A DNA stretch of 64,000 bases, taken from assembly GCA_016432405.1 (NCBI GenBank), contig CP066687.1, positions 219,040 through 283,039 of the forward strand. Direction: 5' to 3'. Every line of letters starts with the position of its first letter. Position 1 is the stretch's first letter. Made by a program: the position numbers and the translations under genes. This document shows, piece by piece, positions 1 to 16,985 of the stretch. The notes beneath the pieces were generated by a model. The model saw only the letters and a program-made list of their open reading frames with translations. It had not been told where the DNA came from and did no database searches. This DNA comes from Candidatus Giovannonibacteria bacterium (lineage in GTDB: Bacteria > Patescibacteriota > Minisyncoccia > UBA11713 > 2-01-FULL-45-33).

Positions 1-334
1 TTTCAATGTGTTCCAAAACGTCCAGCAGGGTTACGATGTTATATTGTTCGTGCAGGTGGATTTTGGGGAATTCGCCTTTAATTAACGTAAAGTCCGGGTT
101 TAGCTTTTTTGCGAGATCGGCGGCGACATCGGAAAAATCAAGCCCAAAAATGTTTTTTGAGAAATTGCCAAGGAGGGCGGCGTTAAAACCCGTGCCGCAG
201 CCGATGTCCAGTGCCCTCTCAACTTTTTGGGCGCAGAACAATCGCAGGCATTCGGAGATAATCTTGCGGCGGCCGCGAAACCACCAATGGTCCTTTTCCG
301 TGTTATAAAGTTCTATGTATTGGGCTCTTTCCAT
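1..334 (-). CDS. Class I SAM-dependent methyltransferase. The N-terminus is present; the gene runs off the 5' window edge.
   Basis: Minus-strand translation reads MERAQYIELYNTEKDHWWFRGRRKII...LDIGCGTGFN...; motif I is GCGTG. The minus-strand ATG sits at 334-332. The ORF track missed this gene because it has no stop within the window. Confidence 0.7.
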   Translation of the reverse strand, partial: MERAQYIELYNTEKDHWWFRGRRKIISECLRLFCAQKVERALDIGCGTGFNAALLGNFSKNIFGLDFSDVAADLAKKLNPDFTLIKGEFPKIHLHEQYNIVTLLDVLEHIE

Positions 335-360
335 GCTATAATTTTATTTTGTAAATTGTT

Positions 361-1745: not shown

Positions 1746-1748
1746 CTT

Positions 1749-2432
1749 ATGAAAATGATTTCGGTAGTAGTCCCGGTTTATAACGAAGAGCATACAATAA
1801 GCGAGCTTCACGAACGTCTTGTGAAAACGCTGGCGGCCTGTTGTGATTCTTACGAGATTGTTTTTGTCAATGACGGCTCAACCGATAACACGGAAAAAAC
1901 AGCGCTGACTTTGAAGCCGCTTGAATTGATTTCTTTTGCAAAAAATCAAGGGCAGACCCCGGCGCTGAATGCCGGAATACGCAAAGCGAAAGGCGACATC
2001 ATTGTGTTTTTGGACGCTGATTTGCAGAACAACCCCGAGGACATCCCGAAACTTTTGGAAAAAATTTCGCAGGGTTGCGGCGCGGTGGTGGGTCGGCGCG
2101 AGCATCGGCAGGACCCTGCCGCTCGCACCATATTTTCCAAAGTGGCAAATTTTATCGCCCGTTTGCTTTTGGGCGTAAAAGTCCATGATTTCGGCTGCGG
2201 GCTTAAAGCATATCGCGCGGAATTTATCAAAAACTTTGAGCTTTGGGGGCAGGTGCAGGTTTTTTTGCCGGCAATTGCCAAGGCGCGCGGGGCGAAGGTC
2301 TGTGAAGTCGGCGTTGCGCATAACGACAGAAAAGCCGGGGTCTCCAAAATAAAAATTTCCAATATGGTAAAAGGCGGCCTGGGCCTTTTAAAAATCGCTT
2401 TTATTGCTAGATTTTTAAATCCTTACAGGTAA
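1749..2432 (+). CDS. GT2 family glycosyltransferase (second polyprenol-phosphate sugar synthase-like)
   Basis: VVVPVYNEE, NDGSTDNT, LDADLQN motifs; 227 aa. Confidence 0.7.
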   Translation: MKMISVVVPVYNEEHTISELHERLVKTLAACCDSYEIVFVNDGSTDNTEKTALTLKPLELISFAKNQGQTPALNAGIRKAKGDIIVFLDADLQNNPEDIPKLLEKISQGCGAVVGRREHRQDPAARTIFSKVANFIARLLLGVKVHDFGCGLKAYRAEFIKNFELWGQVQVFLPAIAKARGAKVCEVGVAHNDRKAGVSKIKISNMVKGGLGLLKIAFIARFLNPYR

Positions 2433-2439
2433 TCCGCTT

Positions 2440-4383: not shown

Positions 4384-4411
4384 CGGAAATTTTATAGTTG
4401 TATATATTAAT

Positions 4412-5398
4412 ATGCAATCGTCAATAATATTGAGCAGAGTGCCGTTTCGGCTGCCATTGGGCGGAGGGTCTACGGATATGCCCTCGTATTATAAAAAATA
4501 CGGGGGGTTTATATTTACCGCCGCAATCAATATGTATATGGACGTCTTGATTAAAGCGACCCGTTCGGACGATCTTATCCACGTGCATTACAAATCTTTT
4601 GAAGCCGTGCCTTCGGTTGGAGAAATCCGCCATGAGCTGGCCAGAGAGGCGCTGAAGATGACCGGCCACGAAAAAGGCATAGCCATTTCTTTTAAGGCGG
4701 ATACGCCCGCCGGCACCGGCCTTGGCTCCTCCGGCGCGTGCTCCGTGGCTTTGCTTAAAGGGCTGTCGGCTTACAACGGAAACGAGATGCCGAGCGAAGA
4801 AGCCGCCGAAAAATCATTTGAGATAACCCAGTCCCTTGGGCTTCACGACGGCAAACAGGACCCATACGCCTGCGCCCTTGGCGGCTTTTCCGTTTTGGAT
4901 ATTGATACCGACGGCAAAGTAAATGTTACAAAACCGGTTTTCGCCAAGGAGACAGTAGATAAATTTTTAAATAATACCCTGCTTTTTTACACCGGCGTCA
5001 GCCGGGAGAGCGACCCGATATTGGCCGCGCAGGATAAAGAAAAAGTTCTGGAGTTGAAACACAAAACCAAAGCGATTGGCCTCGAGGTTTATAAAGCGTT
5101 TCAGAACGGAGATTTAGACCGCTTTGGCTCTTTGATGGACGAGCATTGGCGGGTCAAAAAATCAATGTCTTCGCAAATGGCCAACCGGCGGTTTGACGAA
5201 ATTTACGAAGCGGCGAAAAACGCCGGCGCTTTGGGCGGCAAAATTCTGGGAGCCGGCGGCGGCGGATACTTTTTATTTTACTGCCCGTCGCAAAAATCCA
5301 AAGAGTCCGTGCGCGCCGCGCTAAGCGGCTACGGGCTGCGGGAGATGGATTTTAGCATTGACTATAAAGGCGCTCGCGTCCGGAGAGTTAATTTTTAA
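4412..5398 (+). CDS. hddA: GHMP family sugar kinase, D-glycero-alpha-D-manno-heptose-7-phosphate kinase-like
   Basis: PAGTGLGSSGACSVALL is the GHMP motif II; 328 aa; the genomic context contains gmhA, gmhB and a transaldolase. Confidence 0.6.
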   Translation: MQSSIILSRVPFRLPLGGGSTDMPSYYKKYGGFIFTAAINMYMDVLIKATRSDDLIHVHYKSFEAVPSVGEIRHELAREALKMTGHEKGIAISFKADTPAGTGLGSSGACSVALLKGLSAYNGNEMPSEEAAEKSFEITQSLGLHDGKQDPYACALGGFSVLDIDTDGKVNVTKPVFAKETVDKFLNNTLLFYTGVSRESDPILAAQDKEKVLELKHKTKAIGLEVYKAFQNGDLDRFGSLMDEHWRVKKSMSSQMANRRFDEIYEAAKNAGALGGKILGAGGGGYFLFYCPSQKSKESVRAALSGYGLREMDFSIDYKGARVRRVNF

Positions 5399-5399
5399 A

Positions 5400-7139
5400 A
5401 TGTCCGGATTTTTAAAAGAGCACAGGTTTATACTGATTTCCGCGATTTTTTTGGCGCTTGCGGTTATCTCGCCTACACTGCTGTTCCCGCTCCTCGCCGG
5501 CGATTCGTATAAGGGCATCAATCTTGGCGAATGGGACGACGACGCGGCATATATTGCCAAAGGCAGGGAAATTCTTGAAAGCCATTCTTTGGGCAATATT
5601 TTTCTTAAAATCGGCAAAAACGATTCGTCTGACCCTCACCAGGTTTACATAGAATATCTTCTTCTCGCGCCGGTTAGAATGCTGGGGCTTTCCAGCGTAG
5701 CGAAAAGTCATATCGTGGCGCTTTACGGCTTTTATGCTTTTTTGGGCGTTGCTTTGTTGATTTTATTCATTTATTTTTTTGTTCTTAACTTATCCGGCAA
5801 TAAATTGCTTTCAGCCGCAGCCGCATTGTTCGCAGTCGGCGGCCACGAGTTAGTAAAGCTGTACCACCTTCCGGTTACCGCCGTCGCCTACAATTTCAAC
5901 ATATTTTCCCGGCCGATTATGCCCGTTTACGGGCTTCTTGCGCTTTTTATTTACATAAATTTACTGGCAAAAAGTTTGCGTGAATCGGGATGGAGGTGCG
6001 TTTTTTGGGCAGGAATTTCTTTCGGCGCGTTGTTTTACGTTTACCCCTACACATGGACTTTCGCCCTGGCGCTGACAGGGAGCTTGTTTCTGATTTATCT
6101 TTTTTTGAGGGATTGGGGGCAGGCCAAAAAAGTTTTTTACATTTCGGCGATCGGTTTTGCTGTTGGATCTTACGCGCTCGTTTTATTTTTATCGTTTATT
6201 TCTTCGGAAATTGGCAAACAAATCGCCGGCTTTACAACGTTTATTTCCCACGCCCCCGCGCCTTTCAGCAAGCTCTCTTTTTTGATTTTGATTATGGCAA
6301 TTATTTACGCCTATAAAAATCGCGATAAAAAAGACTACCCGATTCTTTTGGCGATTATTCTAGCCAGCTGGATAACCCTAAATCAGCAGGTAATTACCGG
6401 GCGCGATCCGCAAGGAGTTGATCATTACTTTTGGTACTTTACCATTCCTACTTCCATTGTGGCGGGGTCTTATGTTTCGTGGGCGCTTGTGTGGGGCTGG
6501 GAGCGCGGGAAATTAATATTGCAAAAATACGGAAGCGCTTTGCTTGGCATTGTAATCATCGTTGCTTTTTTAAATACCGCGGGACAGCAATACGCAAGGA
6601 CGATTGTGATGATGGGCACCAAAGAATACGCCCAGAGTTACCGTCCGATTATTGACACGCTGAATCGCGATCCGAAACCGGGAGTTATTTTAAGTTCAGA
6701 GCTTTTCTACGGAGAGTTTTTCCCAGTATACACCGACCACGATTTATTTTGGGCCATGCACGCATTCAATTTCGCTACCCCGATAGAAAGAATGAAAGAC
6801 GCGCTTTATTTGTACGCGTATTTAGATAAAGAGGCCAGAGGCGATTTTGCCGGCGCGCTTTATAAGATAGACGCCGGCGGAGTTAAAAAAGCGTATGGGC
6901 GCCATTACTCATCAATCTATACTGCTTTAAGCAGAGAGAAAACCATAGATTTGCTTTCCGGCGAATACAAAAAAATAGTTGATAATCCCGAAGGAATCAT
7001 TAACATTTTAAAGAAAGCCGAAGTCAATTATATCGTCTGGGACAAGAATACAAACCCGGAGTGGGACCTTTCCCCGCTTGCTAATAATCTTCAAGAAATT
7101 GCCGCGTCAAACAATATTTATTTATATGCGTTGAAATAA
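5400..7139 (+). CDS. Large polytopic membrane protein, putative GT-C-type glycosyltransferase (paralogue 1 of 3)
   Basis: About 11 predicted TM helices, an acidic first-loop motif GEWDDDAAY, and a C-terminal soluble domain of about 200 aa. It is paralogous to 7144..8967 and 19786..21522. I moved the start to the ATG at 5400, just after the upstream stop. Confidence 0.5.
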   Translation: MSGFLKEHRFILISAIFLALAVISPTLLFPLLAGDSYKGINLGEWDDDAAYIAKGREILESHSLGNIFLKIGKNDSSDPHQVYIEYLLLAPVRMLGLSSVAKSHIVALYGFYAFLGVALLILFIYFFVLNLSGNKLLSAAAALFAVGGHELVKLYHLPVTAVAYNFNIFSRPIMPVYGLLALFIYINLLAKSLRESGWRCVFWAGISFGALFYVYPYTWTFALALTGSLFLIYLFLRDWGQAKKVFYISAIGFAVGSYALVLFLSFISSEIGKQIAGFTTFISHAPAPFSKLSFLILIMAIIYAYKNRDKKDYPILLAIILASWITLNQQVITGRDPQGVDHYFWYFTIPTSIVAGSYVSWALVWGWERGKLILQKYGSALLGIVIIVAFLNTAGQQYARTIVMMGTKEYAQSYRPIIDTLNRDPKPGVILSSELFYGEFFPVYTDHDLFWAMHAFNFATPIERMKDALYLYAYLDKEARGDFAGALYKIDAGGVKKAYGRHYSSIYTALSREKTIDLLSGEYKKIVDNPEGIINILKKAEVNYIVWDKNTNPEWDLSPLANNLQEIAASNNIYLYALK

Positions 7140-7143
7140 ATAC

Positions 7144-8967
7144 ATGTCTAATTTTTTTACCGAACATAAATTTATATTGATTTCCGCAGTCGGTTTGGCG
7201 CTTTTGGTGATATCGCCGGCCCTGCTTTTCCCGTTTATGGCCGGCGATGCGTATAAGGGCATAAATGTTGGTGAGTGGTCGGACGACTTCCATTATATCG
7301 CCAAAGGCAGAGAGATTCTGGAAGGCCATTCTTTGGGCAATATTGTTCTTAAAATCGGCAAAAACGATTCGTCCGACCCGCACCAGGTTTATATAGAATA
7401 TCTTCTTCTCGCGCCGGTTAGAATGCTGGGGCTTTCCCGCGCGGCGGCAGATTATATTGTTCCTATATACACTCTTTACGCTTTTTTGGGAGTTTTCCTT
7501 TTAATCCTCTCCATTTATTTTTTCATCCTGCGCCTCTCCGCGCATAAATTATTGTCCGCGGCGATAGCGCTATTTACAATAGGCGGCTACAGTTTGGTGA
7601 AGCTTTACCATGTGCCGATTACTGCAACCAATCCGGACCCCAACATATTCAGCCGGCCGATTATGCCCGTTTACGGGCTTCTGGCGCTTTTTATTTACAT
7701 CAATTTGCTTGCGAGAAGTTTAAAATCATCGGAGAAAAAACATATTCTTTGGTCCGGCATTGCCTTCGGAGCGCTGTTTTACGTTTACCCCTACACATGG
7801 ACTTTTGCCCTGGCGCTGACAGGGAGCTTGTTTCTGATTTATATTTTTTTGAGGGATTGGGAATCAGCGAAAAAAGTTTTTTGGGTTTTTACAATCGGGC
7901 TTGCCGTTGGCGCTTACACTCTTTTTAAAACGTTTTCATTTCAGTATTCGGAAATCGGCAAACAAATTTTATATTACGGGATTACTTTAAACCATAGTCC
8001 GGCGCCTTTCAGCAAGATTTTATTTTTGGCGTTAATTTTGGCAGTTATCTTTGCGTGCCGAAATAAATGGAGCAGGAACGCCCCCTTGCTTTTGTCTATT
8101 GTTCTCGCAAATTGGATAGCTTTGAACCAGCAGGTAATTACCGGGCGAGTCCCGCAAATAATGCACTATTTTTGGTATTTTACGATACCGACTTCTATCG
8201 TCGTTGGGGCTTACCTTGGATGGGCGCTTGTGTGGGGCTGGGAGCGCGGGAAATTAATATTGCAAAAATACGGAACCATTTTTTTGGCGGCGCTAATTAT
8301 CACCGCTTATTTTAATGCGGCTTCGCGGCAGTATCAGGTGACGCTGATTACGCGGGAGGCCAAAGAATACAGGCAGAACTACCGCCCTATTATTGACGCG
8401 TTGAAGTCGGATGCCGAACCGGGAGTTATCCTCGCGTCATCCCTGCCTTACGCAATGTTATTTCCGGTGTACACGCATCATGATTTATTTTGGGGGCATG
8501 CTACTGCTTTGGTTTACAATACGCCGATGGAAAGAATTAAAGATGCGCTGTACGTGTATATGTATTTGGATAAGAGCGCCAGAGACAATTTTTTGGGCCG
8601 GCTTCGCGATGTAGATGCCGGATACGGAGTTGGAGGCGAATGGGGAACCAGTTTTTACCCGCTTATTTATTTTTTTGTGGCCGGTTTTAATTCCGGTTTT
8701 GATTACGAGGAATATGGTTTTCGTTTGGCCAAGGGCGACCCGGCGACGGTTAAAAGCAGAGACGAAACGTCGGCCTTACTTTTCCGCGGATATCAAAAAG
8801 TAGCCAGTCCGGAAGGCATTGCAGGCATTCTGAAAAAAGGCGAGGTCAATTACGTCGTTTGGGATAAAAACAAAAATCCGGAGTGGAATTTGTCGCCCCT
8901 TTCCGGAAATTTAAGAGAGGTTGCCGCGTCTAACAATATTTATTTGTACAAATTTGGCGGTGACTGA
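7144..8967 (+). CDS. Large polytopic membrane protein, putative GT-C-type glycosyltransferase (paralogue 2, tandem to paralogue 1)
   Basis: Same architecture as paralogue 1. It shares several 55-80 nt stretches of nucleotide identity with it, for example 6479-6533 matches 8221-8275. Confidence 0.5.
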   Translation: MSNFFTEHKFILISAVGLALLVISPALLFPFMAGDAYKGINVGEWSDDFHYIAKGREILEGHSLGNIVLKIGKNDSSDPHQVYIEYLLLAPVRMLGLSRAAADYIVPIYTLYAFLGVFLLILSIYFFILRLSAHKLLSAAIALFTIGGYSLVKLYHVPITATNPDPNIFSRPIMPVYGLLALFIYINLLARSLKSSEKKHILWSGIAFGALFYVYPYTWTFALALTGSLFLIYIFLRDWESAKKVFWVFTIGLAVGAYTLFKTFSFQYSEIGKQILYYGITLNHSPAPFSKILFLALILAVIFACRNKWSRNAPLLLSIVLANWIALNQQVITGRVPQIMHYFWYFTIPTSIVVGAYLGWALVWGWERGKLILQKYGTIFLAALIITAYFNAASRQYQVTLITREAKEYRQNYRPIIDALKSDAEPGVILASSLPYAMLFPVYTHHDLFWGHATALVYNTPMERIKDALYVYMYLDKSARDNFLGRLRDVDAGYGVGGEWGTSFYPLIYFFVAGFNSGFDYEEYGFRLAKGDPATVKSRDETSALLFRGYQKVASPEGIAGILKKGEVNYVVWDKNKNPEWNLSPLSGNLREVAASNNIYLYKFGGD

Positions 8968-8997
8968 TAAGCGCGGCGGAGGTTGTATAATAAAGCC

Positions 8998-9618
8998 ATG
9001 CAGCAGAGCGACCATATAGAAACGTATTTAAACGAAGTTGTAGAGATTACAAAACGCATAGACCGTGGCTCTATACGCAAAATCGTCGGGATCTTGCGGG
9101 ATTTAAGAAATAAAAAAGGGCGCCTGTTTATTATCGGCGTCGGCGGTTCGGCGGCAAACGCCTCGCATGCTGTTAATGATTTCCGAAAAATTGCCCATAT
9201 TCAATCTTACGCTCCAACGGATAACGTCGCCGAGCTTACCGCTAGAGTAAACGATGACGGCTGGGATTCTGTTTTCGCGCGCTGGCTAGAGCATAATCAC
9301 ATAACGCCCAATGACGCAGTTTTGGTTTTGTCAGTTGGCGGAGGCAACGCTGAAAAAAACATAAGCGCAAATATTGTACATGCGCTGAATCACGCCAAAG
9401 AGCGCGGCGCAAAAATATTGGGCATTGTGAGCCGCGACGGCGGGTATACAGCTAAAGTCGCCGATGCCTGTGTTTTGGTGCCGGTTGTGAATCCGGACAA
9501 CGTGACGGCGCACGCGGAAGCATGGCAGGCGGTGCTGTGGCACGCGATTGTTTTTCATCCTGAATTAAAAATGACTGAAGGAAAATGGGAAAGCATAGAA
9601 AAACCGATGTTGTCTTAG
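8998..9618 (+). CDS. gmhA: SIS-domain sedoheptulose-7-phosphate isomerase
   Basis: LFIIGVGGSAANASHAVNDF...LVLSVGGGN...GAKILGIV is the phosphoheptose isomerase signature. GGAGG lies upstream. The ORF track starts at a TTG at 8983; I prefer the ATG at 8998. Confidence 0.75.
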   Translation: MQQSDHIETYLNEVVEITKRIDRGSIRKIVGILRDLRNKKGRLFIIGVGGSAANASHAVNDFRKIAHIQSYAPTDNVAELTARVNDDGWDSVFARWLEHNHITPNDAVLVLSVGGGNAEKNISANIVHALNHAKERGAKILGIVSRDGGYTAKVADACVLVPVVNPDNVTAHAEAWQAVLWHAIVFHPELKMTEGKWESIEKPMLS

Positions 9619-9633
9619 AGACAACAATTTTTC

Positions 9634-9662
9634 TTGACTAATATTAAAGGATTTGCTAGCAT
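9634..9662 (+). promoter_or_regulatory. Candidate sigma70-like promoter upstream of the P-loop kinase / gmhB / tal genes
   Basis: TTGACT, a 17-nt spacer, then TGcTAGCAT (extended -10-like) in a 76-bp intergenic gap. Confidence 0.3.
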
Positions 9663-9694
9663 AGCGGCTAGAAAATAAAACCCGGAGGTGACTC

Positions 9695-10330
9695 GTGATA
9701 GCAAATTTCCGTTTTGCGTTGGACAAACCAACGCTCATTTTGGGCGCGGGCATAGCAAGCAGCGGGAAAAGCACGGTTTTCAGGCCGATTGCGGCCGCGT
9801 TGTTTGATTCGGTGTATGTAGAAAAGGACCTGATTAACGATGCTTTTTTATGGATGCCCAAAAGCGGGGAAAGGCGGGACATGTCCCGTTATCTGGTTTC
9901 CGAGCGCATTTCAAATCAGAGTCCCATTTACAGGGATCACATATGGCTGCAAAGCTACCACTGCATGCTGATGTTGGCGCGGCAGGCGCTGGAGTTGGGG
10001 AAGCACCCGATCTTGGAAGGAAATTACGTTAAGGAAATTCGGTGGGGATATATTGAAAAGGTTTTGTTGCCCCAGCTCGCCGGTATCAACTATAAGCTTA
10101 AAATTCTTCTTGCGCATGCTCCGGCTGATTTGATTCGCGAAAGGATAATAAAACGCGACGAAGGCCGCGACAAAAAAGTAATAAGTTCCGACGAAGAATG
10201 GCAGCGCTTGCTTGCCGAACAGCCGCCCATCCCGCCAGAGATTGAGAAGTACCCGCATATGAAAATTGACACCTCCGAAGCGTTGTCTCTCCAAGCGCTT
10301 TTTGAGATCATGAGGTTTTTGGCTGATTAG
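9695..10330 (+). CDS. P-loop NTPase / predicted kinase (AAA_33 / zeta-toxin-like fold)
   Basis: Walker A GAGIASSGKST near the N-terminus. GTG start with GGAGGTG 5 nt upstream. 211 aa. Confidence 0.5.
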   Translation: MIANFRFALDKPTLILGAGIASSGKSTVFRPIAAALFDSVYVEKDLINDAFLWMPKSGERRDMSRYLVSERISNQSPIYRDHIWLQSYHCMLMLARQALELGKHPILEGNYVKEIRWGYIEKVLLPQLAGINYKLKILLAHAPADLIRERIIKRDEGRDKKVISSDEEWQRLLAEQPPIPPEIEKYPHMKIDTSEALSLQALFEIMRFLAD

Positions 10331-10394
10331 TTTTTGAGAGCCTCGGCTCGCCGCGTTACTGGCGGGCCTTTTATTTTGTTATTATTTTAGACAT

Positions 10395-10940
10395 ATGGCG
10401 CATGTCGGCAACAAAGCTGTTTTTTTTGACAGGGATGGCGTGATTCTCAAAGCGGTAGTAGATGCCGGCGTGCCGCGGCCGCCGTACAGCGTTGCTGAAT
10501 ATAAAGAGAAAAGCGGAATTATGCCTGGGGCAAAAGAAGCGGTTGAAGCGGTGCGCAGAAACGGCTTTCTTGCTATTTTGGCAACGAACCAGCCGGATAT
10601 TCGGTATGGGAGGATCACAAAGGAAGACTGGCAGTGGATACAGAACCAGATTGTGGATATTCCGTTTGACGATATTTTTATATGCTTTCACGGACGAGAT
10701 GACGGGTGCGAGTGCAAAAAACCGAAGCCGGGAATGCTGATTGCGGCCGCAAAAAAATGGGGGATTGATTTAAAAAAAACTTTTATGGTCGGGGATTCTG
10801 AAAGCGACGTGAAAGCCGGCCAAGCCGCAGGATGCAAAATAATTTTAATAGACCATGAACAAAATAAAAATTTGGAGCCCGATTTCAGGGTGACAAATTT
10901 ATCGGAAGTGGTAAAATTGATAAATGAAAATATTTATTGA
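10395..10940 (+). CDS. gmhB: D-glycero-D-manno-heptose-1,7-bisphosphate phosphatase (HAD superfamily)
   Basis: FFDRDGVI is the HAD motif I. CFHGRDDGCECKKPKPGM is the GmhB zinc-loop CxCxKP motif. MVGDSESD is motif III. Confidence 0.8.
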   Translation: MAHVGNKAVFFDRDGVILKAVVDAGVPRPPYSVAEYKEKSGIMPGAKEAVEAVRRNGFLAILATNQPDIRYGRITKEDWQWIQNQIVDIPFDDIFICFHGRDDGCECKKPKPGMLIAAAKKWGIDLKKTFMVGDSESDVKAGQAAGCKIILIDHEQNKNLEPDFRVTNLSEVVKLINENIY

Positions 10941-11658
10941 TAGCGCGAATTTAAACGATATTGAGGAGGCCTTAAAACGCGGATTCGCGGAGGGGATTAC
11001 GACAAATCCGTCTCTTCTGGCAAAAGAGCCGAAATCCTCTTTTGAGGCGCACATCGGAAAAATTGTGGAGCTGATTAAAAAACATCAGCCGGGTATTCAT
11101 TTGAGCGTGGAAGTTTTTTCGCGCGACCAAAAAATTATTTTGGAGCAGGCACAGAAATTTATGAAGCAGTTTGCTTATCCGCAAATGAGCATTAAGGTGC
11201 AAGTTGGGTGGGATGAACTTGAAACCATTAAAAAATTGAGCGCGGCTGGCATTTCGGTAAACTGCACTGCCTGTATGAATGTGACGCAAGCCGTGATGGC
11301 CGCGCGTGCTGGCGCAAAATACGTCAGTTTGTTTTGGGGCAGAATCCGCGACGGCGGGACAGATGCGGCAATGTCTAAAGAGCGAGATGAAGCCGTAAAT
11401 AAAAGAGCTTTAGACAGCGACGATTTCAATCCTTTTAAGGTTGTTCAGGCGACGCGGCAGATTTTTGACCAGGACAAAATTCCATCAGAAATTATCGCGG
11501 GCAGCATGCGCAGTGCCGTTGACGTCAGAAACGCGCGTTTAGCCGGCGCTCATATTGTGACCGTGCCCCCCAAATTTTTTCCAGATATGATTTCCCACTT
11601 CAAAACCGACCAAGTCGTCAACCAATTTTTGACTGATTTTGAAAAATGGATGAGCTAA
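10924..11658 (+). CDS. tal: Transaldolase / fructose-6-phosphate aldolase family (short type)
   Basis: FIDSANLNDIE...GITTNPSL signature; 244 aa; the product sedoheptulose-7-phosphate is the GmhA substrate. Confidence 0.7.
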   Translation: MKIFIDSANLNDIEEALKRGFAEGITTNPSLLAKEPKSSFEAHIGKIVELIKKHQPGIHLSVEVFSRDQKIILEQAQKFMKQFAYPQMSIKVQVGWDELETIKKLSAAGISVNCTACMNVTQAVMAARAGAKYVSLFWGRIRDGGTDAAMSKERDEAVNKRALDSDDFNPFKVVQATRQIFDQDKIPSEIIAGSMRSAVDVRNARLAGAHIVTVPPKFFPDMISHFKTDQVVNQFLTDFEKWMS

Positions 11659-12521
11659 AAAAAACTATAAAAAATTTAATAATCTCAATGCGGCCAAGGC
11701 AGTGGATAAAAAACCTCTTTCTTTTTGCCGCCATAATTTTCGTAAAGCAGTTTTCGGATATTGAGAAGCTGGCGGCTGTTTTTGAGGCCTTTATCATTTT
11801 CTGCTTCGCCTCAAGCGCGATTTATCTGCTAAATGACGCAGTGGACGCGCCGTATGACCGCAGACACCCGCAAAAACGCCTAAGGCCGATCGCCGCTGGA
11901 GAGCTCCCAGTATTCGGAGCTGTTTTCGCAGCCGCGGTTTTCGGAGCGCTCTCCGTTTTTTGGAGTTTTTACATAAATAATTTTTTCGCGCTTGCCGTTA
12001 TCGGATTTTTGGCGCTTAATGTTTTATATTCGTTTTATCTCAAGCGTTTCGTGATAATTGACGTGATAACAATCGCTTTGGGTTTTGTCATCCGCGTCAT
12101 CGCCGGCGCAGTCGCCATAGACGTCCGGTTTTCGGAATGGCTGATTCTTTCAACTTTTTTCCTGACGCTTTTTTTGGCTATTTCCAAGAGGAAAAACGAG
12201 CTTATGCATGCAGAGGAAACCGAAGCGCGCGAGGGGCTTGGCAGATATTCTCTCGCTCTCTTGGACCAGATGAATGCGATTGTTTTGCCTTCCACCATTA
12301 TCACCTACGCTTTTTATACGTTCAGCTCCGAGCACAGCAAGCTTCTCATGATTACAATACCCATCGTGCTTTACGGGCTTTTTCGGTATTTATTTTTGAT
12401 AAACATAAAAACGCGGAGCGACGATGGTCCCACGGACGATTTGCTTTTAGACAAACATTTGCTCGCCACTGTTTTTATCTGGCTCGCGGTTTCCGTAGCA
12501 ATGATTCTTTATGCCGGATAG
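11646..12521 (+). CDS. UbiA-family prenyltransferase, polyprenyl-phosphate phosphoribosyltransferase (DPPR synthase, Rv3806c)-like
   Basis: LLNDAVDAPYDRRHPQKRLRPIAAGEL carries the NDxxDxxxD motif; about 8 TM helices; 291 aa. Confidence 0.6.
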   Translation: MDELKKTIKNLIISMRPRQWIKNLFLFAAIIFVKQFSDIEKLAAVFEAFIIFCFASSAIYLLNDAVDAPYDRRHPQKRLRPIAAGELPVFGAVFAAAVFGALSVFWSFYINNFFALAVIGFLALNVLYSFYLKRFVIIDVITIALGFVIRVIAGAVAIDVRFSEWLILSTFFLTLFLAISKRKNELMHAEETEAREGLGRYSLALLDQMNAIVLPSTIITYAFYTFSSEHSKLLMITIPIVLYGLFRYLFLINIKTRSDDGPTDDLLLDKHLLATVFIWLAVSVAMILYAG

Positions 12522-12540
12522 ATTTTTTGAGGAGCTGGAT

Positions 12541-12918
12541 ATGCCGCGGCAGGGGGCTGTGATTTTTTTGGACATTGACGGCACTTTGCGGCCGGACGGA
12601 GATCAAGGAATGAGTCAGGAGGTTTTAAATAAGCTGGCGGAGCTTAAGGCCAAAAACGAAGTTCATTTAATCAGCAATAAAGGCAACGGCGCAAAAAAGC
12701 CGAGCCGAGAAGCGGCAGAGGGCGTTGATATGGCCGGGAAAAAAGTTGTGGTGATAGGCGATAAATTTTTGACGGACGGGCTGTTCGCGAAAAATATCGG
12801 AGCCGAATTCGTTAAAGTCAGAAGAAAAATTTCAGGCCGGGAGAATTTTTTTGTTAAAGTCGCGTATTTTATTGACGATTTTATTTCTGCTATATTATGG
12901 AAACAAAAAAATATTTAA
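12541..12918 (+). CDS. HAD superfamily phosphatase (small, IIIA-like)
   Basis: [11 protein letters not shown] is the HAD motif I; GDKFLTDG is motif III. GAGGAG lies 7 nt upstream of the ATG at 12541. Confidence 0.55.
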
Positions 12919-13940
12919 TAACAGGCGGCGCCGGGTTTTTGGGAATTAACCTCGCGCGTTTTCTGCTCAAAAAAGGGCAGAAAGTAAGAATTCTGGATTT
13001 GGCCCAGTTTGATTACCCGGAGAGAAACAAGGTTGAGGCGCTGCTCGGGGACACAAGAGATAAATCAGGCGTTGATAAAGCGATGGACAGAATTGACATT
13101 GTTGTCCATGCGGCGGCCGCGTTGCCGCTTTATTCGCAAAAAGACATATACTCCACGGAAGTGGACGGAACAAAAAACGTTTTAGAAAGCGCCGGGCGGC
13201 GCAACGTTGACAGATTTATACATATTTCCAGCACGGCGGTTTACGGCATTCCCGACCACCACCCGATTTACGAAAATGATAAGCTTCAGGGAGTTGGGCC
13301 TTACGGCGAGGCGAAAATTCTGGCGGAGAAATTTTGCGAGGAAGCAAGAAAAAATGGAATGTGCGTTACAATTCTCCGGCCGAAATCTTTTGTGGGACCC
13401 GAGCGGTTGGGGGTTTTCGCGCTTTTTTACGATTGGGCGGGCACCGGGCACAATTTCCCCATGATCGGCAACGGAAAAAACAGCTACCAGCTTTTAGACG
13501 TTGAAGATTTATGCGAGGCGATTTTTCTTTCGGCTACCTTGCCGAAAGAAAAGGCCAACGACACTTTCAATGTCGGCGCAAAGGATTTTGCGACGATGCG
13601 CCGGGACTGGCAGGCGGTTTTGGACCGCGCGGGATTCGGCAAAAAAATTATCGGTTTGCCCGCTGCCCCCATGATTTTTGTTTTGAGATTCTTGGAGATT
13701 TTGCGCCTTTCACCTCTTTACAAATGGGTTTATGAAACCGCAGGCAAGGACTCTTTTGTGTCAGTGGAAAAAGCTGAACGGATTTTGGGATTCCGTCCAA
13801 AATATTCCAACAAAGAAGCGCTCGTCCGCAACTATGAATGGTATTTGGCTAATCTGGATAAATTTAAAAACCAGACCGGGGTATCCCACCGCGTCCCGTG
13901 GAAACAGGGGATTTTAAAAATCGCTAAGCTTTTTTTTTGA
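12897..13940 (+). CDS. NAD-dependent epimerase/dehydratase (extended SDR)
   Basis: ITGGAGFLG glycine-rich motif; YGEAK is the catalytic YxxxK; 347 aa. Confidence 0.7.
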
Positions 13941-13943
13941 GTT

Positions 13944-14537
13944 ATGCGGTTTGACCTTTTGCGGGCCGCAATTGTGGGGGAAGCCATCGCGCTTTTGACT
14001 TTGCCGACGTTAAAAAATATAAATTTTTTTGAGCCGACATTTGTCGCCGTCTGGCTGGTCTTCGTGCCCGCGGCGGCGCTCGCCGGTTTTTATTTGATTT
14101 ATTTGACGTCGGCGAGGCGGCCCGTCTTGCTGGAGTTGGGAAAATACGGCCTCGTCGGATGCTTCAATTTTTTTCTGGACGCGGGCATTTTCAACTTTTT
14201 TATTTTAATTACTGGCATTGCCAGGGGTTGGCCGGTGGACGTTTTTATAATAATTGCTTTTGCGATAACGATAACGCAAAGTTTTTTGTGGAATAAATTC
14301 TGGATTTTTAAGGCGAACGATTTGGCCAATGCGCGCGCGCAGTACGCAAAATTTTTCAGCATGACTGTTGTCACTTCCCTTTTAGGGCTTTTGTTTATGC
14401 ATCTTATGATAAATACCATCGGTGCTCCCTCCGGTTTTGATTTGAAAGTTTGGGCGAATCTCGCGCTTTTAGTTTTGATACCGACGTCTGCCCTGGGCAA
14501 TTTCCTTGGCTATAAGTTTTTTGTTTTTAAAAAATGA
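13944..14537 (+). CDS. GtrA-family protein (lipid-linked sugar translocase / flippase family)
   Basis: LGKYGLVGCFNFFLDAGIFNFF...SFLWNKFWIFK is the GtrA signature; 4-5 TM helices. Confidence 0.65.
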   Translation: MRFDLLRAAIVGEAIALLTLPTLKNINFFEPTFVAVWLVFVPAAALAGFYLIYLTSARRPVLLELGKYGLVGCFNFFLDAGIFNFFILITGIARGWPVDVFIIIAFAITITQSFLWNKFWIFKANDLANARAQYAKFFSMTVVTSLLGLLFMHLMINTIGAPSGFDLKVWANLALLVLIPTSALGNFLGYKFFVFKK

Positions 14538-15202
14538 CTCACGCCGAATATTGCAGCAAGTTTATTCCCGCCGGCGGCAGGGTCTTGGATGTGGGCTCCG
14601 GCAGGGGCGATTTTCTGCGCGAGATGGCCGGCTTGGGATTTGACGCGTGCGGAGTTGAGCCGAACACCGAGCGGATTTTTTCCGCAATAGGCGGACCAGC
14701 CTTTGGCCGGGAAAAGGTTGTGAAGGTAAGCGCCGAAAACTTGCCGTTCCCCGATAATCATTTTGATTTTGTAAATTGCGCCGAGGTCAGCGAGCACGTT
14801 GACGATCCTTCTAAGATGCTCCAAGAAATTTTTCGGGTTCTAAAGCCCGGAGGGAAATGCTACACAAGTTTTCACAATCGCTTGGGGGTTTACGACTATC
14901 ATTATCGGCTTTATTTTATAAACTGGATGCCGAGGGTTTGGACAGAGCCGATTTTAAAATTTTTAGGAAAACAAAAAGAGGACGGCCCGGCCGGACGCCA
15001 GAAACTGACCACGATGCATTATTATACTTACGGACAAGTTTTGAAAATGCTTCACAATGCCAGTTTTTCCGCAGAAGACATCCGAAAAGAGAAAATTAGA
15101 CAATTCTTCGGCATCACGCGCTTGCCGTTTTTTATTTTATATTTCACATTGCTTCGTCCGTTATATTTCAACACCTTCCATTTTTTGCTTGCCAAACCTT
15201 AA
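14534..15202 (+). CDS. Class I SAM-dependent methyltransferase
   Basis: VLDVGSGRGDF is motif I; LKPGGKCY is the post-II motif. Confidence 0.7.
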   Translation: MTHAEYCSKFIPAGGRVLDVGSGRGDFLREMAGLGFDACGVEPNTERIFSAIGGPAFGREKVVKVSAENLPFPDNHFDFVNCAEVSEHVDDPSKMLQEIFRVLKPGGKCYTSFHNRLGVYDYHYRLYFINWMPRVWTEPILKFLGKQKEDGPAGRQKLTTMHYYTYGQVLKMLHNASFSAEDIRKEKIRQFFGITRLPFFILYFTLLRPLYFNTFHFLLAKP

Positions 15203-15227
15203 TCCGACCTGATAAGTTATAAGAGAT

Positions 15228-16985
15228 ATGAGATTTCTTGTAACCGGAGGGTGCGGATTTATGGGGTCAAATTTTATCCATTATGTTTTGGATAATTTCC
15301 CCGAGAGCGCTGTCATAAATCTTGACCTCTTGACGTACGCCGGAAACGAGGAAAATCTTCGCGGCGTCCCGCCATCCAGATACCGGTTTGTGAAAGGTGA
15401 CATTTGCGACACGGAGCTCGTAAAAAAGCTGATGCGGGAATCCGACTTCGTCGTAAACTTCGCCGCCGAGAGTCATGTGGACAGGTCAATCCATTCCGAC
15501 GCCGACGATTTTGTCCATACCAATGTCGTAGGAGTCCACTCGCTTTTGAAAGCGTTGAGGGGCTCGCCTAACGTTAAAAAGATGGTTCATATCTCGACGG
15601 ACGAAGTCTGGGGCGATTTGCATTTTAAGTCGCAGGAGAAGTTTACCGAAGAGTCGCCGCTTAGGCCGAGTTCTCCGTACGCCGCTTCCAAGGCCGCCGG
15701 CGAAATGCTTGTGCGTGCTTATCATAAAACCTATGGCCTGCCGGTGGTCATTTCGCGTTCGGTCAACAATTTCGGGCCGAGGCAGCATCCGGAAAAAGTG
15801 ATTCCGTTTTTCGCCATGCTGGCAATGGACAACAAGCCCCTGCCGATTCACGGCAGCGGTTTAAATGTGCGGTCGTGGATTCACGTAGACGACCACACCC
15901 GCGCCGTCCTCGCTCTTTTGGAAAAAGCTCCCTCGGGGGAGATATACGGCGTTTCCGCAGATGAAGAGTGCTCAAACATGGATATTGCCGGAAAAATATT
16001 GAGAATTTTAAACAAGCGGGAAAACCTGGTTACTTTCGTTGAAGACCGTCCGGCAAATGACAGGAGGTATGCGGTTAATCCGTCAAAGCTGCTCGCTTTA
16101 GGATGGCGCCCCCAGCGTTCGCTGGACAGCCACATCCCGGTGACCATTGATTGGTATAAAGAAAATCAGACATGGCTTAGTAGTGTTGCCAGGAAGTATG
16201 AAAGCACGAGCGAAGAGATGCGGCGTTCGTCCGCAGATATCAGAAAAAGGGCGCTTGCTGGTTCGCCCGCCAGATCTCTTTCAATTTTTTTCCCGTGCCT
16301 TAACGAGAAAGGGACAATCGCCACAATGGTTTTGGAAGGCAGAAAAACCGCCGTGTCGCTCACGGACGATTTTGAAATTATTGTCGTAGACGATGGCTCC
16401 ACCGACGGCAGCCGCGAGCTTCTTTTGGAGCTTCAAAAGAGCGTTCCGGAATTAAAATTAGTTTTTCGCGAAAAGAGGGGTTACGGCGCGGCGCTTAGAA
16501 ATGGATTTAAGGCGGCAACAAAAGAGCTTGTTTTTTATACCGATGGCGACGGGCAATATGACGTGAGTGAATTACCGATGCTGTGGAATAAATTAACCAA
16601 CGAAGTAGATATTGTAAATGGCTACAAAATTAAACGAGCCGACCCGTTGTACCGCATTATCATTGGTTTTATTTATCAGCATGTTACAAGATGGGCGTTT
16701 TGGTTGCCAATTAGAGACCCTGATTGCGACTTCCGCTTAATTCGCAGAAAAGTGTTTGACACGGTTGAGCTTAAAAGCGATACCGGCACCATAACTATTG
16801 AGATTGTAAAAAGAATTCAGCAAGCCGGCTTCCGTTTTGTTGAAGTTGGAGTTTCGCATTACAACCGCACATATGGAAGTTCTCAATTTTTTAACTTCCG
16901 TAGGATCGTTGTCACATTATGGCGTTTGGCTTTTTTGTGGGTGGAGCTGATTATATTTTCGGGCAGACGAAAAAATCATGGATGA
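15228..16985 (+). CDS. rfbB: Bifunctional fusion: dTDP-glucose 4,6-dehydratase (RmlB-like) N-terminal domain plus a GT2 glycosyltransferase C-terminal domain
   Basis: N-terminus VTGGCGFMGSNFIHYVL...NLDLLTYAGNEENL with YAASKAAGE, typical of RmlB. C-terminus from about residue 345: VVDDGSTDGS...YTDGDGQYD, a GT2 DxD core. 585 aa. Confidence 0.65.
   Translation: MRFLVTGGCGFMGSNFIHYVLDNFPESAVINLDLLTYAGNEENLRGVPPSRYRFVKGDICDTELVKKLMRESDFVVNFAAESHVDRSIHSDADDFVHTNVVGVHSLLKALRGSPNVKKMVHISTDEVWGDLHFKSQEKFTEESPLRPSSPYAASKAAGEMLVRAYHKTYGLPVVISRSVNNFGPRQHPEKVIPFFAMLAMDNKPLPIHGSGLNVRSWIHVDDHTRAVLALLEKAPSGEIYGVSADEECSNMDIAGKILRILNKRENLVTFVEDRPANDRRYAVNPSKLLALGWRPQRSLDSHIPVTIDWYKENQTWLSSVARKYESTSEEMRRSSADIRKRALAGSPARSLSIFFPCLNEKGTIATMVLEGRKTAVSLTDDFEIIVVDDGSTDGSRELLLELQKSVPELKLVFREKRGYGAALRNGFKAATKELVFYTDGDGQYDVSELPMLWNKLTNEVDIVNGYKIKRADPLYRIIIGFIYQHVTRWAFWLPIRDPDCDFRLIRRKVFDTVELKSDTGTITIEIVKRIQQAGFRFVEVGVSHYNRTYGSSQFFNFRRIVVTLWRLAFLWVELIIFSGRRKNHG

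Follow-up and report, generated by a model that had tools for sequence, protein, structure and literature searches.

The GDP-D-glycero-alpha-D-manno-heptose pathway of S-layer and capsule producers uses the enzymes GmhA, HddA, GmhB, and HddC. To our knowledge, known heptose clusters do not include a dedicated transaldolase, and the lincomycin octose route is the only characterized sugar-nucleotide pathway that has one. In that route, the transaldolase LmbR accepts either fructose-6-phosphate or sedoheptulose-7-phosphate as the donor, has ribose-5-phosphate as its acceptor, and feeds a GmhA-like isomerase (PMC4351081; PMC5854111; PMC12945683). The GtrA/GtrB/Gtr and ArnC/ArnT systems represent three-component machinery for lipid-linked glycosylation, with a GT2 enzyme, a GtrA-family protein, and a GT-C-fold transferase, and mycobacteria have a decaprenyl-phospho-arabinose pathway (Rv3806c, Rv3807c, DprE1/DprE2, and Rv3789). 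Within Paceibacteria, an ADP-heptose module has been reported (PMC9166423).

The window analysed here, a 64-kb stretch of DNA from a Candidatus Giovannonibacteria genome (CPR/Patescibacteria, a group of tiny bacteria not yet in culture), contains a tightly packed, same-strand operon. Judging from its genes, we propose, with about even confidence, that a conserved CPR cassette in this operon makes a nucleotide-activated higher-carbon sugar for lipid-linked surface glycosylation, a heptose being the leading guess. Such a cassette would represent a copy of a central-metabolism enzyme built into an operon for a seven- or eight-carbon surface sugar, in an arrangement that recurs across CPR.

Predicted sugar-nucleotide enzymes of the operon

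The six genes named in an initial annotation of the locus are intact ORFs on the + strand, as are all genes described below, and the gene calls of that annotation hold at the family level. The SIS isomerase (8998–9618, 206 aa; alternative TTG start at 8983) matches Pfam SIS_2 (3.2e-11), and sequence comparison with the PDB finds only phosphoheptose isomerases (best match 1tk9, 7e-11). It differs from GmhA in having Asp in place of the catalytic Glu, a phosphate loop that is 7–9 residues longer, and Glu in place of Gln in the C-terminal helix. All three differences are common to the 20 cassette isomerases that were aligned, and the score against the NCBIfam GmhA equivalog is far below the cutoff (60.8/209 bits). 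By sequence, the protein is classed as a divergent, cassette-specific aldose-ketose isomerase of GmhA-like type.

The GHMP kinase (4412–5398) groups with the heptose kinases 3k85, 4usk, and 4n3o (1e-41 to 1e-34) and not with fucokinase (8e-19) or galactokinase (6e-9), and its best NCBIfam model is HddA (137 bits versus a cutoff of 600), in keeping with its earlier designation as HddA-like. It is predicted to be an anomeric (C1) kinase for an aldose phosphate. The HAD-IIIA phosphatase (10395–10940, 181 aa) contains the motifs DRDGV and CECKKPKP, the latter being the Cys-rich motif reported earlier. Its best PDB matches are GmhB enzymes (about 1e-15), and it passes TIGR01656 (98.7 > 84.2) and TIGR01662 (68.8 > 44.6) while remaining below the GmhB equivalog cutoff (77/250 bits). 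Its predicted role is removal of the phosphate at the end of the chain, at C7 or C8.

The 221-aa nucleotidyltransferase (1080–1745; Pfam NTP_transferase, 1.4e-21) is the only candidate for the activating enzyme of this operon. It had been called HddC-like; its best NCBIfam matches are instead the archaeal GlmU N-terminal and AglF models, its best PDB match is ST0452/GlmU, and HddC follows at 1.6e-11 (78.7 bits versus a cutoff of 300 for the HddC equivalog). Thus, the enzyme families of the proposed GDP-glycero-manno-heptose route are present, but all four equivalog matches (GmhA, HddA, GmhB, and HddC) are far below cutoff, and, because the nucleotidyltransferase is more similar to GlmU/AglF-type enzymes than to HddC, neither "GDP" nor "glycero-manno-heptose" is established.

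A transaldolase subfamily linked to the isomerase

The transaldolase (10924–11658, 244 aa; Pfam TAL_FSA, 3.9e-41) belongs to the same fold family as the short-type enzymes of the pentose-phosphate pathway, including those of B. subtilis (3r8r, its best PDB match, 9e-34) and T. acidophilum (3s0c). It retains the catalytic and phosphate-binding residues D6, N28, E63, K91, N113, T115, S135, F137, R140, S194, and R196, sharing with 3r8r and 3s0c the catalytic Asp, Glu, and Lys and the phosphate-binding Arg, Ser, and Arg. F137, the Phe, also shared with both, that separates transaldolases from FSA aldolases, marks the protein as a transaldolase and not an FSA. In contrast to these enzymes, to which it is only about 35–40% identical, it lies among glycan genes and not with pgi or tkt, and it scores below its NCBIfam cutoff (145/246). 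Specifically, it has a 22-residue insertion (147–168) just after phosphate-binding Arg140, a D-to-R switch at position 142, further insertions relative to ordinary short types at 53–57 and 83–84, and fixed subfamily switches at positions 93, 98, 114, 118, 142, 193, 200, and 227. More than 120 clusters of relatives were found at ≥62% identity (range 62–95%), and those with names are nearly all from CPR. On sequence comparison, the protein belongs to a subfamily of CPR transaldolases in which the catalytic residues are intact and 22 residues are inserted.

We compared 17 loci of this subfamily with 56 loci of ordinary short transaldolases, using one genome per species. A SIS gene is directly upstream of the transaldolase at 17/17 subfamily loci and at 0/56 ordinary loci (Fisher p = 6e-17), an association far beyond chance. 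Within 10 kb, the HAD-IIIA phosphatase is present at 13/17 loci, the GHMP kinase at 13/17, and the nucleotidyltransferase at 11/17, whereas the isomerase and these three enzymes are absent near the transaldolase at all 56 ordinary loci. The 17 cassettes show two gene orders and represent several CPR lineages; Giovannonibacteria L005 and Magasanikbacteria L007, for example, have the same layout. One transaldolase with 63% identity (L009) is located in a glycan cluster where no isomerase gene occurs within 10 kb. These data support a functional tie of the transaldolase to the GmhA-type isomerase, as first suggested for this window, and not a chance neighbourhood. The accompanying statement that a transaldolase beside heptose genes is uncommon is valid outside CPR; for this subfamily, the linkage is the rule.

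It is very unlikely that the transaldolase is instead a housekeeping pentose-phosphate enzyme placed beside heptose genes by accident. The intact catalytic residues would suit such a role, as would the finding of no other tal, tkt, rpi, or rpe gene in the 64-kb window and the frequent reports of transaldolase missing in CPR (PMC7143001). However, the gene overlaps both neighbours (the phosphatase gene by 17 nt and the UbiA gene by 13 nt), and the isomerase linkage persists across lineages and gene orders. Moreover, Peribacteria L069 has an ordinary 215-aa transaldolase in a Tal-Pgi-transketolase operon, indicating that the pentose-phosphate pathway of CPR employs the ordinary type. The accidental reading is thus strongly disfavoured, although a subfamily transaldolase could serve both roles where it is the sole copy in a genome.

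The 13-nt overlap also bears on the module that follows the cassette. The UbiA-family protein (11646–12521) passes the NCBIfam model for decaprenyl-phosphate phosphoribosyltransferase (NF008977; 238.6, cutoff 234) and matches PDB 8j8j over its full length (4.8e-38). A small HAD-like protein (12511–12918; Pfam Hydrolase_like, 1.6e-6; PGP_phosphatase, 6e-6) is a candidate polyprenyl-phosphoribose-5-phosphate phosphatase, and an extended SDR epimerase/reductase (12897–13940; Pfam Epimerase, 3.3e-41) would belong to the same module; both genes are kept, in this order after the UbiA gene, in L011/L015. On these matches, we regard the three genes as a neighbouring, mycobacterial-type phosphoribosyltransferase module. 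Together with the gene overlap, the matches of the UbiA protein could indicate that the transaldolase provides ribose-5-phosphate towards PRPP, which the Rv3806c-like enzyme uses as donor. We give this possibility very little weight, since the module adjoins the transaldolase nowhere but in the window and L011/L015, and at the remaining 16 species loci the transaldolase is partnered by the isomerase and lacks a UbiA gene within 10 kb.

The initial annotation suggested that the transaldolase provides dedicated sedoheptulose-7-phosphate, but this is not the sole reading. Transketolase by itself can produce sedoheptulose-7-phosphate, so that a heptose would not obviously require a dedicated transaldolase. 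A tentative alternative, to which we assign a lower probability than to the proposal above, is an LmbR-like octose pathway, in which a ribose-5-phosphate acceptor would yield octulose-8-phosphate and then an NDP-octose for a cell-surface glycan. LmbR, LmbN, LmbP, LmbK, and LmbO represent exactly the five enzyme classes of the cassette, and the strict linkage occurs while the CPR pentose-phosphate operon has an ordinary transaldolase. The transaldolase and the isomerase are also the divergent members of the set, with the insertion after the phosphate-binding Arg and the longer phosphate loop, respectively, and their sequence changes, taken together, may point to a substrate other than sedoheptulose-7-phosphate. 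In addition, transaldolases with ~45% identity occur in sugar-nucleotide cassettes of Acidobacteria, which are expected on general grounds to have a full pentose-phosphate pathway, so that supply of sedoheptulose-7-phosphate should not be limiting there. Against an octose, the sequence changes carry no demonstrated tie to acceptor size, and the cassette-linked transaldolases of L099 and L012 do not have the insertion. Furthermore, we know of no cell-surface glycans with octoses made via this route, whereas heptoses are common.

The P-loop kinase and the predicted lipid-linked end of the operon

The 211-aa P-loop small-molecule kinase (9695–10330) starts with GTG, 5 nt after GGAGGT, has the Walker A motif GIASSGKS, and matches Pfam AAA_33 at 28.4 bits (cutoff 27), one of the families against which the initial annotation had proposed to search it. 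An identical kinase protein is encoded on a 651,549-bp Candidatus Giovannonibacteria contig. A search by sequence and fold found no characterised relative. In the window, the gene is preceded by a promoter-like site and followed, just 3′ of it, by a terminator-like hairpin (10345–10368, + strand; 9 pairs, 7 of them G-C, then TTTTATTTT), which is a pattern match only but is the first site listed in a consensus terminator scan of 1–16000 and has the most G-C pairs. The hairpin is consistent with insertion of the kinase gene as a unit. These features, and the absence of the kinase from most cassettes, would be compatible with both earlier suggestions for it, namely an alternative heptose kinase replacing the GHMP kinase or a passenger unrelated to the pathway. 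We consider either improbable. The kinase and the GHMP kinase coexist at five loci (the window, L011/L015, L096, L098, and L099), which argues against replacement. The genes of this small family are inside or beside cassette genes at 8/8 informative loci, in at least six different positions or gene orders, a distribution not expected of a passenger. The closest multidomain relatives are kinase-NUDIX fusions, and these fusions and the gene neighbours point to a NUDIX hydrolase as the putative partner in relatives. We therefore read the P-loop kinase, from its genomic distribution, as an optional accessory enzyme of the cassette.

The remaining genes suggest that the sugar is lipid-linked. The GT2 (1749–2432), for which no transmembrane segments are predicted, resembles soluble polyprenyl-phosphate sugar synthases, with best PDB matches to ArnC (2.4e-33), dolichol-P-mannose synthase (2.7e-23), and GtrB (5e-19). 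It forms a pair with the following gene at 7/17 related loci; in the window, that gene encodes a 647-aa fusion of NAD(P) and FAD oxidoreductases (2440–4383; Pfam GFO_IDH_MocA, 6.9e-24, and DAO, 1.8e-14). In Magasanikbacteria L007, each half is encoded by its own gene. The fusion probably tailors the sugar. The GtrA-family protein (13944–14537; Pfam GtrA_DPMS_TM, 2.7e-13; five predicted hydrophobic segments) is a candidate flippase for polyprenyl-phosphate sugars.

Three paralogous membrane proteins match no Pfam family. Paralogue 1 (5400–7139; likely start ATG 5400 in an ORF that opens at 5358) has eight predicted hydrophobic segments, matches no Pfam model even with the E-value limit relaxed to 10, and is 64% identical over its full length to paralogue 2 (7144–8967, 607 aa). 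The AlphaFold model of paralogue 2 (pLDDT 90.8, pTM 0.92) gives Foldseek PDB hits of which the top 22 are all GT-C enzymes (STT3/PglB/AglB, AftA, DPY19, and ArnT; E down to 6e-7), establishing, at the level of the model, a GT-C fold for proteins of this type. Among 89 homologues of paralogue 2, none has a functional annotation other than one evidently automatic JGI label ("ABC-type multidrug transport"), and those with organism names are nearly all from CPR; it represents a CPR family lacking a Pfam model. Five homologues are fused to a GT2 domain, supporting a hand-over from GT2 to GT-C. The combination of an ArnC/DPMS-like GT2, a GtrA-family protein, and three GT-C-fold proteins indicates a lipid-linked surface sugar.

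Proposed pathway and comparison with described systems

From the family-level gene identities, the strict transaldolase-isomerase linkage, the intact catalytic residues, and the GT-C fold, we infer an order of steps, an acceptor, a nucleotide, and use of the NDP-sugar by the GT2. The specialised transaldolase would transfer a C3 unit from fructose-6-phosphate to an aldose phosphate, giving a ketose phosphate, which the GmhA-like isomerase would convert to an aldose phosphate. The HddA-like kinase would phosphorylate C1, the GmhB-like phosphatase would remove the terminal phosphate, and the nucleotidyltransferase would form the NDP-sugar. The GT2 would then attach the sugar to polyprenyl phosphate, with the GFO-DAO fusion acting as tailoring enzyme, the GtrA-family protein would flip the lipid-linked sugar across the membrane, and the GT-C-fold proteins would transfer it outside the membrane. 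The leading guess for the sugar is D-glycero-D-manno-heptose, in which case erythrose-4-phosphate would be the acceptor and sedoheptulose-7-phosphate the ketose phosphate formed; an octose built on ribose-5-phosphate comes close behind.

Relative to the GDP-heptose pathway, the window has the same four folds in one cluster, with a GHMP kinase nearest HddA/WcbL and a phosphatase nearest GmhB, including its Cys-rich loop. Differences include scores below the equivalog cutoffs for all four enzymes, the catalytic Asp and longer phosphate loop of the isomerase, the archaeal GlmU/AglF-like nucleotidyltransferase, the obligatory transaldolase neighbour in the CPR cassette, and a product that seems bound for a polyprenyl-phosphate carrier and GT-C enzymes. 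The GtrA/GtrB/Gtr and ArnC/ArnT systems share the set of GT2, GtrA-family, and GT-C-fold proteins, but the window GT2 is without membrane helices, and the window GT-C proteins are three paralogues that match no Pfam family.

As in the mycobacterial pathway, a full-length Rv3806c homologue is followed by a phosphatase, an oxidoreductase, and a GtrA-family protein, and the arabinosyltransferase AftA is among the fold hits of paralogue 2. The window phosphatase, however, is HAD-like and not PAP2, one extended SDR replaces the DprE1/DprE2 pair, and the host is a CPR bacterium; the likeness is at the level of genes.

The closest precedent by enzyme class, which the initial annotation had missed, is the lincomycin GDP-octose pathway, with the same five classes and a GmhA-like isomerase that is likewise supplied by a dedicated transaldolase (PMC4351081; PMC5854111; PMC12945683). 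That pathway serves antibiotic synthesis in Streptomyces, whereas the window holds a CPR surface-glycan operon with GT2, GtrA, and GT-C proteins and without NRPS or mycothiol genes. The resemblance extends to relatives, whose type-A cassettes carry GFO_IDH_MocA and SDR epimerase genes, corresponding to the LmbL/LmbZ and LmbM classes.

A predicted glycan operon with a divergent transaldolase

The initial annotation had placed an isomerase, a P-loop protein, a phosphatase, and a transaldolase side by side, and all four are present there as intact, same-strand genes. In particular, a SIS-domain, GmhA-like isomerase (8998-9618, + strand) is followed by a 211-aa P-loop protein (9695-10330, + strand; Walker A motif GIASSGKS; GGAGGT ribosome site 5 nt 5′ of the GTG start), a HAD-IIIA phosphatase (10395-10940, + strand; DRDGV and CECKKPKP motifs), and a 244-aa transaldolase with a TAL_FSA domain (10924-11658, + strand). 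A GHMP kinase (4412-5398, + strand) and a 221-aa nucleotidyltransferase (NTase; 1080-1745, + strand) lie upstream of the isomerase. All genes from 361 to 24214 are on the + strand, spaced −62 to +76 nt apart; the phosphatase gene overlaps the transaldolase gene by 17 nt, and the transaldolase gene overlaps the next gene by 13 nt. A promoter scan was at background level (25 found versus 20.9 expected). A Pfam scan of 58 of the 63 ORFs of at least 100 aa (361-61736) revealed cell-surface glycan genes and a few others only, including aminotransferases, methyltransferases, NeuB, cytidylyltransferases, GT1/GT2 enzymes, and an ABC exporter; the same scan revealed no transketolase, no ribose-phosphate isomerase/epimerase, and no second transaldolase. 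The segment 32156-49889 contains a nonulosonic-acid-type set (HisF/HisH-like pair, CMP-sugar cytidylyltransferase, UDP-GlcNAc 2-epimerase-like protein, and NeuB) together with hexapeptide acetyltransferases, DegT aminotransferases, and a PseB/Polysacc_synt_2 dehydratase, and from this gene content the same glycan island would probably make a sialic-acid-like sugar as well.

The transaldolase matches Pfam TAL_FSA at 141.7 bits (cutoff 27), scores 145.1 against its best NCBIfam model, TIGR00875 (below the cutoff of 245.95), and is ~35-40% identical to ordinary short transaldolases. It keeps D6, N28, E63, K91, N113, T115, S135, F137, R140, S194, and R196 of those enzymes; on the basis of published TalB, TacTal, and FSA work, we take K91 to be the Schiff-base lysine, E63 and D6 to be catalytic, and F137 to indicate a transaldolase and not a fructose-6-phosphate aldolase (Phe versus Tyr). 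Relative to the ordinary type, it has fixed switches (P→Q at position 93, G→E at 98, V→C at 114, F→M at 118, D→R at 142, A→G at 193, H→D at 200, and L→K at 227) and insertions at 53-57, 83-84, and 147-168, the last of which barrel topology would place in the loop after strand 6, just past the phosphate-binding Arg, on the catalytic face. Relatives at 62-95% identity, where named, are almost all from Candidatus Giovannonibacteria, Magasanikbacteria, Peregrinibacteria, Minisyncoccia, and Patescibacteria. The transaldolase protein itself is present on metagenome contigs, and a 651,549-bp contig of Candidatus Giovannonibacteria encodes a protein identical to the P-loop kinase, so the window is of CPR origin. 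A tblastn search of plasmids (PLSDB) with the transaldolase returned ordinary fsa/tal genes only, at no more than 36.5% identity.

Linkage to a GmhA-like isomerase and to heptose-type enzymes

To compare gene neighborhoods, we ran an alignment of the subfamily against GTDB genomes, one for each species, and took the 80 best-scoring transaldolase loci out of 580 or more. The six-frame ORFs of these 80 loci were then searched with the window proteins, a score of ~270 bits or more identifying the subfamily type. Among these best 80 loci, the isomerase gene is directly upstream, on the same strand, in 17/17 subfamily-type loci, versus 0/56 ordinary loci with any cassette neighbor (Fisher p = 6e-17). 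Within 10 kb of the 17 subfamily-type loci, the HAD-IIIA phosphatase and the GHMP kinase are each present in 13 and the NTase in 11. Two gene orders recur: isomerase-phosphatase-transaldolase, also obtained by independent look-up in Giovannonibacteria (L005) and Magasanikbacteria (L007), and NTase ... GT2, GFO/DAO, phosphatase, GHMP kinase, isomerase, transaldolase. One locus with a transaldolase relative (L009) is a glycan cluster without the isomerase. In a Peribacteria locus (L069, 10001-13748), genes for phosphoglucose isomerase and transketolase come after that of an ordinary transaldolase of 215 aa, forming a housekeeping pentose-phosphate operon; CPR (Patescibacteriota) therefore do employ ordinary transaldolases in that pathway. 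We thus reject the possibility that the window gene is a housekeeping transaldolase placed by chance, since among the loci compared the isomerase linkage is confined to the subfamily type and the ordinary type occupies the pentose-phosphate operon of L069. The transaldolase is probably a dedicated paralogue, and from its linkage to the isomerase it is predicted to make the ketose phosphate that the isomerase uses.

In the Magasanikbacteria cassette, an adenine phosphoribosyltransferase gene that passes NCBIfam cutoffs (L007, 7956-8477) immediately precedes that of the isomerase. A 72%-identical cassette transaldolase, with isomerase and phosphatase, is also encoded on a contig that bears the name 'uncultured Gammaproteobacteria' (CAYUCD010000007.1, L017); the contig probably belongs to CPR and was mislabelled or mis-binned.

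More distant transaldolases, 43-47% identical to that of the window, occur in Acidobacteria and a Stellaceae genome (L031, also L032-L035). In L031 (7218-11031), a fusion of RpiB with a cytidylyltransferase-like part is accompanied by a PfkB kinase, a cupin, this transaldolase, and an ORF of 120 aa, making up an HldE-like sugar-nucleotide set that includes a transaldolase of its own. In a Parcubacteria locus (L030, 9199-11488; TylF methyltransferase downstream) and a Woesearchaeota locus (L036, 8499-10711; also with a cupin), a class II aldolase/epimerase gene is directly upstream of a related transaldolase, an arrangement that hints at a wider clade of putative biosynthetic transaldolases.

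The initial annotation had read the cassette as a GDP-heptose gene set. The family-level likeness to GmhA, HddA, and GmhB holds, but all four proteins miss their equivalog cutoffs widely; by the curated (NCBIfam equivalog) standard, and as judged from their sequences, they are distant cousins of the heptose enzymes and not orthologues. The isomerase scores 60.8 bits against the GmhA equivalog TIGR00441 (below the cutoff of 209.45), and is still GmhA-like because its sole PDB relatives by sequence are phosphoheptose isomerases (GmhA; best 7e-11). Relative to GmhA, it keeps the His, has Asp for the catalytic Glu and Glu for a conserved Gln, and has a Ser/Thr-rich phosphate loop longer by 7-9 residues, differences that are constant throughout an alignment of 20 cassette isomerases and two GmhA structures. 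For the GHMP kinase, the HddA model NF049969 is the best model (137.4; cutoff of 600 not reached), and the best PDB matches are the heptose kinases 3k85, 4usk, and 4n3o (1e-41 to 1e-34), with fucokinase (8e-19) and galactokinase (6e-9) far behind; given the much stronger heptose-kinase matches, we reject a galacto- or fucokinase, in agreement with the proposal that the kinase is HddA-like. The phosphatase is below the cutoffs of the GmhB models (NF050049, 76.9/250; PRK08942, 99.5/178; TIGR00213, 82/149.6), passes HAD-IIIA superfamily models, and has GmhB as its best PDB matches. For the NTase, which had been proposed to be HddC-like, the HddC model NF049965 (78.7/300) ranks sixth, behind archaeal GlmU/AglF-type models, to which the protein is closer, and in the PDB, HddC structures (1.6e-11) are behind ST0452 and GlmU.

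Predicted lipid-linked glycosylation genes and a putative accessory kinase

The closest matches of the GT2 protein (1749-2432) are all polyprenyl-phosphate sugar synthases (ArnC, dolichol-phosphate-mannose synthase, and GtrB), and a GtrA-family protein (Pfam) is encoded at 13944-14537 (+ strand). Three paralogues of ~580-607 aa (5400-7139, 7144-8967, and 19786-21522; identities 64% and 40%) are encoded, the first two in the interval from the GHMP kinase to the isomerase, and a Pfam search relaxed to E = 10 returned nothing for them. A model of the 7144-8967 protein (pLDDT 90.8) has GT-C glycosyltransferases as all of its top 22 PDB fold matches. We assign this protein and its paralogues to the GT-C fold, in which a polytopic N-terminal membrane domain is joined to a soluble C-terminal domain; hydrophobic segments are predicted. 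Their 89 homologues are without functional annotation and nearly all from CPR; five are fused to a GT2 domain. The same hairpin and tail (CCCTGGCGCTGACAGGG then AGCTTGTTTC) is present at 6064 and at 7808 because of a recent duplication of the GT-C paralogues. Taken together, the GT2, GtrA, and GT-C-type proteins indicate that the operon encodes a lipid-linked, outside-the-membrane glycosylation system. A GFO_IDH_MocA and DAO (FAD oxidase) fusion (2440-4383) always follows an NTase-GT2 pair, its halves being two separate genes in Magasanikbacteria (L007, 14888-16956). NAD-type and flavin-type oxidoreductases beside a polyprenyl-phosphate sugar synthase would be reminiscent, by analogy, of DprE1/DprE2 logic.

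The gene after the transaldolase (UbiA gene, 11646-12521) encodes a protein homologous over its full length to Rv3806c, the decaprenyl-phosphate phosphoribosyltransferase of mycobacteria; it passes NF008977 (238.6; cutoff 234) and aligns full length to 8j8j (4.8e-38, residues 9-287). With a small HAD-like phosphatase, an extended SDR, and the GtrA-family protein, it forms a mycobacterial-type polyprenyl-phospho-pentose set (11646-14537) that suggests a putative lipid-linked ribo- or arabinofuranose donor. Among the loci compared, no transaldolase has this module beside it except in the window and two related loci (L011 and L015), and the module is therefore a neighbor, not the partner of the transaldolase; on the same grounds, we reject a role of the transaldolase in serving the UbiA/PRPP module.

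The P-loop kinase has a borderline match to AAA_33 (28.4 bits; cutoff 27), no match to gluconokinase/SKI or Zeta_toxin at E ≤ 0.01, no NCBIfam match, and no useful match in a PDB sequence search. Its fold model (pLDDT 89) has generic NMP-kinase-like matches (TM 0.5-0.6), the best ones being uncharacterised. The family is small (12 clusters in a word-indexed search; 39 representative clusters at E ≤ 1e-30), and most cassettes are without it. At every locus long enough to judge, the kinase is in or beside cassette genes, each time in a new position: isomerase, kinase, phosphatase, transaldolase in the window; GHMP kinase, isomerase, transaldolase, kinase in L096; kinase, phosphatase, isomerase, transaldolase in L097; kinase, phosphatase, GHMP kinase, isomerase in L098; GHMP kinase, isomerase, phosphatase, kinase, transaldolase in L099; NTase, phosphatase ... 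kinase in L101; IMPase-family gene, kinase, NUDIX, GHMP kinase ... in L011; and transaldolase, kinase, NUDIX, IMPase-family gene in L012. The earlier suggestion that it is an alternative heptose kinase or an unrelated passenger is upheld in neither part: co-occurrence with the GHMP kinase in five loci indicates that it is not a replacement for that enzyme, and association with the cassette in every informative locus, at varied positions, argues against a passenger. We conclude from these neighborhoods that it is a putative accessory enzyme of the cassette pathway.

The two closest multidomain relatives of the P-loop kinase are kinase-NUDIX fusions, in agreement with the kinase-NUDIX adjacency in L011 and L012, and we would guess that the kinase and NUDIX hydrolase act together in salvage or in controlling a side branch. 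In L011 (9097-11245) and L012 (3819-5975), the kinase has an IMPase-family phosphatase on one side and a NUDIX hydrolase on the other; the ORFs scanned in the 64-kb window yielded neither gene. Just 3′ of the window's kinase gene, a strong terminator-like hairpin (10345-10368) is consistent with late insertion.

Possible heptose or octose product

The genes are likely to constitute a dedicated, transaldolase-initiated NDP-sugar cassette, the later steps of which we model on the known heptose and octose routes. If erythrose-4-phosphate is the acceptor, the transaldolase would make sedoheptulose-7-phosphate and the pathway would lead to a heptose; with ribose-5-phosphate as the acceptor, it would make octulose-8-phosphate and the pathway would lead to an octose. 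Heptoses are common in bacterial glycans, and we put the chance of a heptose product at about even. Also favoring a heptose, transaldolase is patchy in CPR (PMC7143001), and Paceibacteria are reported to carry a heptose module (PMC9166423).

An octose is possible as the product, at a lower probability, and several observations favor an octose or another unusual product: CPR have an ordinary transaldolase in a pentose-phosphate operon; the transaldolase and isomerase, the two earliest-acting enzymes of the pathway, are the two most diverged; and transaldolases at ~45% identity are present in other sugar-nucleotide cassettes of Acidobacteria, which are expected not to be short of sedoheptulose-7-phosphate. 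Transketolase alone can supply sedoheptulose-7-phosphate, which also counts toward this side. Other readings are less likely still. The octulose-8-phosphate/octose route has been shown in lincomycin biosynthesis for LmbR and LmbN, then LmbP, LmbK, and LmbO (PMC4351081; PMC5854111; PMC12945683), the enzyme set being defined in PMC4351081 and PMC12945683. Conceivably, and we propose this tentatively, CPR build an eight-carbon sugar nucleotide for the cell envelope using an LmbR-type transaldolase and a matching isomerase. If so, the octose-8-phosphate route, so far known from no other source than lincosamide antibiotics, would enter primary surface-glycan synthesis of a large uncultured radiation, and the wider clade of 'biosynthetic' transaldolases in sugar clusters of Acidobacteria, Parcubacteria, and Woesearchaeota would make non-standard ketose phosphates.

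CPR live attached to other microbes, and to our knowledge almost nothing is known of their cell-surface chemistry. The cassette is conserved and easy to recognise, and predicts a lipid-linked surface glycan with a heptose or octose. Published metabolic reconstructions of CPR give the pentose-phosphate shunt a central place, and 'transaldolase' in a CPR genome may mean glycan synthesis and not that shunt. Also unstudied and of interest are the kinase-NUDIX pair and the GT-C family that no Pfam model covers. As far as the literature searched shows, three features appear new: a transaldolase subfamily that spans CPR and is tied to a divergent isomerase, a cassette coupled to polyprenyl-phosphate and GT-C components, and an accessory kinase with a NUDIX partner; the enzyme classes themselves and the two paradigms, heptose and octose, are already known. 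Likened by class to the lincosamide NDP-octose pathway, the window operon has all five classes: dedicated transaldolase, GmhA-like isomerase, GHMP kinase, HAD phosphatase, and NTase.
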